The notes beneath the pieces were generated by a model that did no database searches, was not told the DNA's origin, and was given only the letters and a program-made list of their open reading frames with translations. The position numbers and the translations under genes were made by a program. A stretch of DNA of 64,000 bases from Eledone cirrhosa (taxonomy: Eukaryota): the NCBI GenBank assembly GCA_964016885.1, contig OZ024742.1, forward strand, positions 20,336,001-20,400,000, in the 5' to 3' direction. Positions 58,301-59,547 of the stretch are shown one piece after another (the first letter of the stretch is position 1; each line of letters begins with the position of its first letter).

Positions 58301-58366
58301 GGCGAGAGTGGATGGTTTTAATTGTTTTGGTGTGTTGTTAATTTGTTTGTTTGTTAATGGCAGCAA
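55346..58366 (-). CDS. LINE ORF2: APE endonuclease + reverse transcriptase (no 5' AUG; frame open from 58483)
   Basis: APE motifs LNAKG, LTETHL, YRPP, GDFN, LDLIF, SDH; RT motifs [38 protein letters not shown]1-type C-terminus RPHLEYC, SLQRRR. Confidence 0.95.
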
Positions 58367-59547
58367 TGGGAGTTTGTGCAGTGGGGTGATAGTGGAGGGT
58401 GGTGCTGGGTGATAGCTCGAATGTTTTTTTCCAGTTCTTTTGCCAGATTCATTATGGCTAAAAAAGAGGAAGAAGTTTCCTGTTTAGAAGACTGTTGGTG
58501 ACTGTGGTAGTGGTTATTTTTATGTAGGTTATGGTTTTTGTTTTTGCTTTTATTTTTAATTTTATTTTCATTTATCCGACGGGTCCCCGGGAGATGGGTA
58601 AAGGGACAATCCCGGTCTAAACACAATCTGTCTCGCAGGGAAAAACGGCAGATTTGTGGATTCCTTGTTTGAGTTATTGGTGGTTGTGTTGGTGTTAAAT
58701 TAGAGTATGTATTATGGTGGTGGCTGTTTGTGGGGATAGATCGTTTTGTCCTAGGTAAATGGGTGAATTTGCAGCCACTATCCGTACATATTCTATAGCG
58801 TAGAGAGTAGCGGCAAATGATGGGGTTTCGAGTGGGTGGGTATATGGGTGTGGGTGTTGTGAGAGGTGTAGATGATGGTTTGGGTAGGATTTGACGACCT
58901 TTGTGGACTGTGGGAGGGAGAGTTCTTGTTCTGGTATTAGAAGGTAAATTCCTTGACATAGCAGTAGACAAAAATGTAGTAGTAGTAGTAGTAGTAGTAG
59001 TAGGCAGAGATGTTGGCAGTGGTGATGATTGGACTGCTGGGCCAGAGAAAGGATGTGGCGTTTCATGCTGTGAGACAGAGGCTACTGGGGGGTCAATAGT
59101 TTCATTTAGTAGATCGGCCATTGTTGATGAATCAAGGAGTGGTTCACACTGTTGTTGTTGCTGTTGTTGATGTTGTTGTTGTAGCTGTTGTTGATGTTGT
59201 TGTTGTAGCTGTTGTTGTTGTTGCTGTTGTAGCTGCTGTTGTTGTTGTTGTTGCTGTTGTAGCTGCTGTTGTTGTTGTTGCTGCTGCTGGACAGCATTCG
59301 AAGAGAAAACACACCGTAGTTTATCCAAATGTTTATTGATTAATTTAAAAGCAATTTCGATTTGCTTTAATTTATTTTGAATCTGTTGTTCAGATCGAGT
59401 TTTCAAAAATTGAACTGTACGTTTAGCAATGTCGTTCAGAGATGAAGCATCTATATTTTCTGTTTGGGAAAGGCAATGCCATGTGTTTATTAGAATGTCG
59501 ATTTCATTATCAGACCAGTTCTGTTTGGATTTTTGCTGGTTAGCCAT
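58354..59547 (-). CDS. LINE ORF1 (397 aa): Myb/SANT-like N-terminus, polyQ, Thr/Pro-rich linker, two CCCH zinc fingers
   Basis: [27 protein letters not shown]; two C-x8-C-x4-C-x3-H motifs; homologous ORF in copy E. Confidence 0.88.

Follow-up and report, generated by a model that had tools for sequence, protein, structure and literature searches.

Background

How ORF2 of LINEs is translated is treated as an open question in several reviews, which in the portions available describe reinitiation alone (PMC2881922, PMC3894237, PMC3708506, PMC5009743), and the word "frameshift" does not occur in the accessible text of the first of them (PMC2881922). For human L1 and silkworm SART1, both experimentally tested, ORF2 is reported to be made by reinitiation on a bicistronic RNA, at a low level that depends on ORF1 translation, as described in PMC2881922, PMC3894237 and PMC3708506, and L1 is reported to tolerate the loss of the ORF2 AUG. 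Recoding has been proposed from sequence for other non-LTR elements, namely a +1 shift or readthrough in Paramecium LINE groups 1-3 (PMC5405496) and a frameshift inside gag of Drosophila HeT-A, which has no RT (PMC5009743). The Dictyostelium elements TRE5-A and TRE3-A, APE LINEs of the L1 group, are said in a figure legend to require a -1 frameshift, the legend naming neither a slippery site nor an experiment (PMC5911963). Finally, 2A ribosome-skipping peptides are described in CR1, L2, Crack and Rex1 LINEs, mostly single-ORF elements (PMC3708506), and -1 frameshift sites of the form X_XXY_YYZ are reviewed in general by Atkins et al. 2016 (PMC5009743).

The LINE analysed here shares with HIV-1 gag-pol the same U_UUU_UUA heptamer in the same phase, an RT ORF without start codon in the -1 frame, an RNA-binding structural ORF upstream and, as a prediction for the LINE, a fusion protein made by a minority of ribosomes. 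It differs from HIV-1 in being a non-LTR element with an APE endonuclease, for which local folding found no stem-loop downstream of the site and Pfam no protease domain, hence no evident processing of a fusion. Whereas L1 and SART1 reinitiate, past a spacer or at a UAAUG, and produce ORF2 as a protein of its own, here ORF1 and ORF2 overlap by 130 nt without a stop-start and a fusion is predicted. The Dictyostelium elements belong to another clade and host, and the heptamer described here, unlike anything named for them in the legend, is conserved across many lineages. Paramecium LINEs and HeT-A are alike in that recoding was proposed for them from sequence, but the former concern a +1 shift or readthrough and the latter a shift within gag, not a -1 shift at the ORF1/ORF2 junction. 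The 2A LINEs, members of the same broad LINE group, also show virus-like recoding at the start of ORF2; however, 2A separates proteins while U_UUU_UUA would join them, and the element has no NPGP. What we propose is a known mechanism, -1 frameshifting, in elements for which the accepted model is reinitiation, and the comparative support for it is strong. In the literature that we searched, mostly openly available papers, no report of conserved slippery heptamers in these LINEs was found; an earlier remark, for instance in element descriptions of the 1990s or in Repbase Reports, is possible.

Results and discussion

A young LINE family with CCCH-type fingers in ORF1

The window, that is the whole 64-kb stretch of DNA that was analysed, is eukaryotic DNA rich in long (TA)n arrays. 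When the element at 55269-59605 was compared with the window by BLAST, six LINE copies were found (A to F, Table 1), 96-99% identical and each inside a (TA)n array. The 5' end of copy F, the full-length one, is blurred by AT-rich flank (about 59588-59605). The copies share their 3' ends. Three of them are plain 5' truncations, copy D carries a 5' inversion, and a short terminal repeat of 10 nt is present once in copy F and twice in each of the other five. In ORF2 an APE endonuclease precedes an RT, as expected of an APE-type non-LTR element, and PF03372, PF14529 and PF00078 match above the Pfam cut-offs. Given this domain content, and since human L1 ORF2p is its best match in the PDB, we consider the copies to be a young LINE family.

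Table 1. Positions of the LINE copies and of the junction features in the window
Feature	Position	Strand	Remarks
LINE copies A-F	17546-18194, 28225-30501, 36276-36703, 39259-42479, 43502-47069, 55269-59605		all share 3' end
Copy F	55269..59605	-	full-length APE-endonuclease/RT LINE in (TA)n array
3' terminal 10-nt unit	55269..55278	-	copy F; runs into (TA)n
ORF1	58354..59547	-	397 aa from first ATG; ATG 59547 to TAA 58356-58354
ORF1 N-terminal three-helix domain	59326..59523	-	predicted helices, pLDDT 70
polyQ-encoding CAA/CAG repeat	59150..59286	-	in ORF1; shorter in copy E
First Cys-Cys-Cys-His (CCCH-type) finger	58759..58815	-	in ORF1; label by pattern
Second CCCH-type finger	58594..58650	-	in ORF1; C, C, C, H invariant in 9/9 aligned ORF1 relatives
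TAA closing ORF2 frame upstream	58484..58486	-	18 nt before slippery site
ORF2 frame	55346..58483	-	1045 aa; APE endonuclease and RT behind an unconserved leader of ~60 aa; no Met before aa 148
ORF1/ORF2 overlap	58354..58483	-	130 nt, ORF2 -1 to ORF1; 34-aa ORF1 tail after site
U_UUU_UUA	58459..58465	-	probable -1 shift site, in phase; Phe-Leu codons of ORF1
A_AAA_AAC	58423..58429	-	in phase; without counterpart in the four nearest relatives
UUG-CUG near-cognate codons	58361..58366	-	ORF2 frame; 7-10 nt before ORF1 stop
Copy E junction	44585..44714	+	1 difference in 130 nt
Copy D junction	39259..39512	-	5'-inverted piece; both heptamers kept, 1-nt insertion downstream

The N-terminal domain of ORF1, which a sequence-only reading of this DNA had called Myb-like, is a putative, weakly Myb/SANT-like domain. 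Three helices are indeed predicted and there is a weak resemblance to PF13837 (E 0.0027), but the score of 18.5 bits lies below the Pfam cut-off of 27, Foldseek found no match for a single-sequence model of the domain, and its ESM Atlas matches are all <0.9. In the rest of ORF1 the CCCH-type fingers (58594-58815) recur in a family of ORF1 proteins (P0102-P0114), and those of one ORF1 relative match zf-CCCH families, below cut-off. Pfam found no PHD, esterase, RRM/CCHC or Tnp22 domain in the window ORF1, while PHD is present in ORF1 of the nearest relative L002 and an esterase in that of L014. These two ORF1 types are typical of CR1 and L2 of the Jockey superfamily, which likewise have an APE-RT ORF2, and the element may be related to these lineages; CCCH and Myb, however, go unmentioned among the ORF1 types in the available text of PMC4120745. 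The PHD fingers of L002 stand where the window ORF1 has the three-helix domain and polyQ, and N-terminal domain swapping among these ORF1s is suggested. A word search with the whole ORF1 gave no match, and no relatives of the element were found among viral contigs.

The ORF1/ORF2 junction in the window

The sequence-only reading had placed ORF2 in the -1 frame relative to ORF1, open from 58483 with an overlap of about 130 nt, and its first Met inside the endonuclease, and both statements proved correct. The first Met is residue 148 (about 58042), past Asn67 of motif I and past Glu103, the latter in an ETHL motif that aligns with QETHL of human L1. In a yeast LINE, mutation of the conserved endonuclease Asn is reported to lower retrotransposition to <5% (PMC1965478); as Asn67 lies upstream of Met148, a product starting at residue 148 is unlikely to be functional. 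A stop-start of the SART1 type (UAAUG) is absent, the ORF1 stop being followed by CAA and the nearest ORF2 AUG lying about 310 nt downstream, and inspection by eye of the translated ORF2 leader revealed no LINE 2A motif, either D(V/I)ExNPGP or NPGP.

Both heptamers of Table 1 lie in X_XXY_YYZ phase within the overlap, as had been noted. Their conservation had been argued from copy E, where they are in fact present (44603-44609 and 44639-44645); however, copy E differs from copy F at 1 of 130 nt and the chance that 14 nt stay unchanged is 0.69-0.85, so that this comparison is nearly uninformative and was rejected as evidence. A third copy that holds both heptamers, the 5'-inverted piece of copy D, had been overlooked. 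With the ORF1 peptide fixed and the ORF2 frame kept open, the probability of one or more in-phase heptamers in the window overlap is 0.47, and for this reason the significance of the site rests on the relatives alone.

Collection of relatives

Relatives were searched for with a 13-protein ORF2 alignment as query, and the best 80 of at least 434 metagenome loci and the best 80 of 443 genome-bin loci were taken. The genome-bin loci are taken to be host contamination; many prokaryotic genome bins (L081-L160) hold animal-type LINE contigs, a sign of such contamination. With the window this made 161 sequences, of which 60 lacked an endonuclease match, 30 lacked an intact ORF2 and one was open at the 5' end; a further 15 had no ORF1 by the rule used, leaving 55 scored LINEs. 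A maximum-likelihood tree, by a quick search, was built from their ORF2 proteins.

Conservation of the heptamer among the nearest relatives

In this tree the window element groups with L001, L002, L003, L074 and L082 (SH-aLRT 100; 81 for the five without L082). ORF2 identity to the window is 35-41% across the clade and 37-41% for L001, L002, L003 and L074. In all six members the two ORFs overlap in the -1 frame, by 130-280 nt, and an in-phase heptamer follows within 3-21 nt of the opening of the ORF2 frame. In five of them the heptamer is U_UUU_UUA at the homologous Phe-Leu of ORF1, which in L001, L002, L003 and L074 lies 3-9 nt past the opening of the frame, and in L082 it is A_AAA_AAC. A single fused ORF, which the sequence-only reading had considered as a possible family consensus, was not seen: the four nearest relatives with a complete junction keep the -1 overlap. 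A search for naturally fused ORF1-ORF2 proteins (544-2000 long), in itself a weak one, returned as its sole match an unfused ORF1 of 567 aa.

As regards conservation of the two heptamers in the family, U_UUU_UUA is homologous in the four nearest relatives while A_AAA_AAC is private to the window element among these five LINEs. The latter was therefore rejected as a conserved site, and it is possibly a second or incidental one. The window element has a -1 overlap without usable AUG and an in-phase heptamer; nucleotide conservation beyond what the protein needs is found for U_UUU_UUA and not for A_AAA_AAC.

This conservation was quantified in the five U_UUU_UUA elements. From the codon usage of each element, U_UUU_UUA as the spelling of Phe-Leu has a chance of 0.010-0.046, and the product over the five is 2.5e-9. 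Upstream of the site about one codon in ten of the -1 frame is a stop, while between the site and a point 15 nt short of the ORF1 stop this frame stays open for 30-83 codons, with a joint chance of 6e-7; the product is limited to these five elements, and one over all -1 elements was set aside because that class is defined by its overlap. Four of the five have no Met before the Asn of motif I, and in three the ORF1 stop falls on the Leu-Asn of motif I, so that a restart there would clip the endonuclease.

These data bear on the possibility that ribosomes terminate at the ORF1 TAA (58356) and restart without AUG, for instance at the UUG or CUG 7-10 nt upstream, giving a separate ORF2 protein and leaving the heptamer as mere coding sequence for Phe-Leu. 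Termination-reinitiation is the mechanism reported for L1 and SART1; UUG-CUG stands beside the ORF1 stop of the window element, in the ORF2 frame and 26 codons before motif I, and before the ORF1 stop there is an AUG at two codons in L003 and an ACG at five codons in L001. Phe-Leu at the slippery site is moreover invariant in all nine aligned ORF1 proteins, and it may also be a protein motif of ORF1. Against this, in L002 and L074 no AUG, CUG, GUG, UUG or ACG occurs within 8 codons upstream of the ORF1 stop, the window element has no stop-start of the UAAUG type, and reinitiation leaves unexplained the constant spelling of Phe-Leu as U_UUU_UUA, the opening of the -1 frame just before the site and its persistence afterwards, as well as the other heptamers that occupy the same relative place in other lineages. 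We consider it unlikely as the route to ORF2 here.

A U-rich run that precedes AG may look like a 3' splice site, and it could be supposed that a spliced or internally started transcript joins the two frames or supplies an AUG, the U-run being a splice or processing signal. The base after U_UUU_UUA is G in the window element, L002 and L003, which agrees with such a signal, but it is C in L001 and A in L074, and we regard an RNA-level route as very unlikely.

Among the sequencing data, a small support for conservation of the heptamer, and hence for a -1 shift, may come from run X10, the useful one for coverage of the junction (X6, X8 and X12 give poor coverage or none). X10 contains a high-copy diverged subfamily (mostly 85-95% alike). 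The 40 differences listed, out of 125, all fall outside the two heptamers, and one printed contig keeps U_UUU_UUA amid neighbouring changes. An in-frame 3-nt deletion just upstream of the heptamer is present in about half of the depth. Twelve runs (X1-X12), with nine coded organism labels, share at least 20% of the element's words, which is compatible with related hosts, mixed samples or horizontal transfer; no RNA run is among the sequencing runs listed for the element.

Heptamers in the wider set of LINEs

Among the 55 scored LINEs, ORF2 is -1 to ORF1 in 30, +1 in 13 and in frame in 12. Two of the -1 elements were left out, L093 (79.5% identical to L014) and L059 (a gap and a 72-aa ORF1). 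A strict in-phase heptamer is present in 21 of the remaining 28 and lacking in seven, a count outside which L016, L020, L021, L089 (U_UUA_AAC) and L158 (U_UUU_UUA) seem by eye to be further -1 cases. When GGA, GGU, GUU and UCC, listed as exceptions for XXX (PMC5009743), are admitted, 24 of the 28 have a site and four do not.

To these 21 correspond 5.1 expected from the elements' own ORF bodies (P 2.5e-12) and 8.7 when the ORF1 peptide is held constant and ORF2 kept open (P 4e-9), and with the ORF2 peptide fixed, a null that leaves out L030 and L096, 19 of 26 are observed and 8.2 expected (P 1.7e-6), all these P values being optimistic because related elements are not fully independent. In the LINEs classed as +1, which still include L089 and L158 despite their -1 reading by eye, none of 13 has a strict in-phase heptamer. 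Of the sites within the -1 overlaps, 24 fall in phase, against 8 for the two other phases together (P 1.7e-6). The median distance of the site from the opening of the ORF2 frame is 18 nt, and in all 16 overlaps of at least 120 nt the site is in the first third, as would be the case if an open -1 frame were required only once the site is reached. Different heptamers occupy the same relative place in other lineages.

From this analysis it is also possible to judge whether the heptamers are a by-product of an A/U-rich linker, rich in Lys and Phe, that arose by chance and was inherited by shared ancestry, ORF2 being translated through an IRES or by leaky scanning. The probability of 0.47 for the window alone, the relatedness of the elements and the 7 of 28 without a strict site speak for this possibility; however, it is rejected by the three nulls, by the phase control and by the +1-class control, 11 of the 12 lineages grouped by hand hold at least one element with a site, and at 30-40% protein identity synonymous positions should be saturated. 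In our opinion such an origin is highly improbable. The same phase bias tells against transcriptional slippage, in which RNA polymerase would insert one extra base at the U6 or A7 run of a small number of transcripts and thus fuse the frames in the RNA itself: both sites are homopolymer runs, but slippage would be independent of codon phase, and it appears to us scarcely credible.

Programmed -1 frameshifting at the heptamer, by contrast with these alternatives, is supported by the comparison: the geometry of the junction, the missing AUG and an in-phase heptamer conserved beyond the need of either peptide are all observed, and the fusion is what they predict.

Some members of the set depart from this pattern or modify it. 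A Met precedes motif I in 13 of the 28 -1 elements, and L038, L113 and L152, classed as +1, have none before the endonuclease. U_UUA_AAC is followed directly by the ORF1 stop in L016 (~757-766), L020 (~1028-1037), L089 (~4334-4343), L030 (1621-1630) and L096 (3635-3644).

UGA-C and UAG-G are leaky-stop contexts. In ten relatives the ORF1 stop directly abuts an in-frame ORF2, and this stop is UGA-C in seven (L018, L022, L032, L033, L039, L092, L107), UAG-G in two (L029, L123) and UAG CAA CUA in L012. UGA-C makes up 6% of out-of-frame stops, against which seven of ten has P 4e-7. These leaky-looking stops suggest a second route, readthrough, to the same ORF1-ORF2 fusion.

RNA structure downstream of the site

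A 3' stimulator was searched for by local folding and in Rfam. No stable local fold was found downstream of the window site, five folds giving z between -0.05 and -1.14 and the standard window z +0.20, and Rfam had no match in 58100-58700, so the caveat of the sequence-only reading that no strong stimulator was visible stands. The weak GCCA..UGGC hairpin that it had mentioned exists, but it starts 0 nt after the site, has z -0.33 against shuffles and carries a mismatch in copy E. Across 23 sites only one has z < -2, and the shift between sites and controls is marginal (Wilcoxon p 0.048 and 0.13). In L014 (U_UUU_UUA) and L030 (U_UUA_AAC), both with an esterase-like ORF1, a GC-rich hairpin is found about 11 nt past the site.

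Proposed mechanism and its meaning

We propose that ORF2 of this element is probably expressed by programmed -1 frameshifting at U_UUU_UUA, giving a predicted ORF1-ORF2 fusion of ~1,400 aa. Most ribosomes, initiating at ATG 59547, would produce the 397-aa ORF1 protein, while in a minority tRNA-Phe and tRNA-Leu on UUU UUA would re-pair one base back, so that 363 ORF1 codons would be followed by 1,037 codons of the ORF2 frame. The fusion would keep the helical domain, the polyQ and the CCCH fingers, would lose the 34-aa tail of ORF1 and would reach the endonuclease through a linker of ~60 unconserved residues. A bare heptamer without stimulator would be expected to shift at a low rate, in agreement with a requirement for ORF1 molecules in large and ORF2 molecules in small numbers, like that for Gag and Gag-Pol, and A_AAA_AAC may add slightly to shifting.

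With somewhat less assurance, it is possible to hypothesize that a large group of animal LINEs makes its RT as an ORF1-ORF2 fusion, the equivalent of Gag-Pol, and that lineages switch between heptamer shifting and leaky-stop readthrough, the present element relying on a bare U_UUU_UUA without RNA stimulator. If so, reinitiation as in L1 and SART1 would be one of several solutions, and LINEs would parallel retroviral Gag-Pol in translation too. The ORF2 protein would be tethered to the ORF1 protein, a possible explanation for the retention of the enzyme on its own RNA and for the control of its amount. ORF2 annotations that begin at an internal Met would be incorrect, and engineered LINEs that express ORF2 alone would do so without the native N-terminus. 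The conserved heptamer makes the question of LINE ORF2 translation testable.

Other observations in the window

All six LINE copies lie within (TA)n and end in 10-nt units running into TA, and microsatellite-targeted insertion of the family is suggested. In copy D, 39259-39512 on the minus strand is joined to 39513-42479 on the plus strand with a short loss at the joint, that is a 5' inversion. Such an arrangement is the pattern of L1 twin priming, and to our knowledge inversions of this type have seldom been described outside L1. Copy E, whose ends are intact, lacks ~730 nt inside the RT region (46514-46516). Finally, at 50449-52200 on the minus strand, beside a TA array, a broken RT is accompanied by a fragment resembling GIY-YIG, below the Pfam cut-off (E 0.037), and the two probably represent a Penelope-like element.
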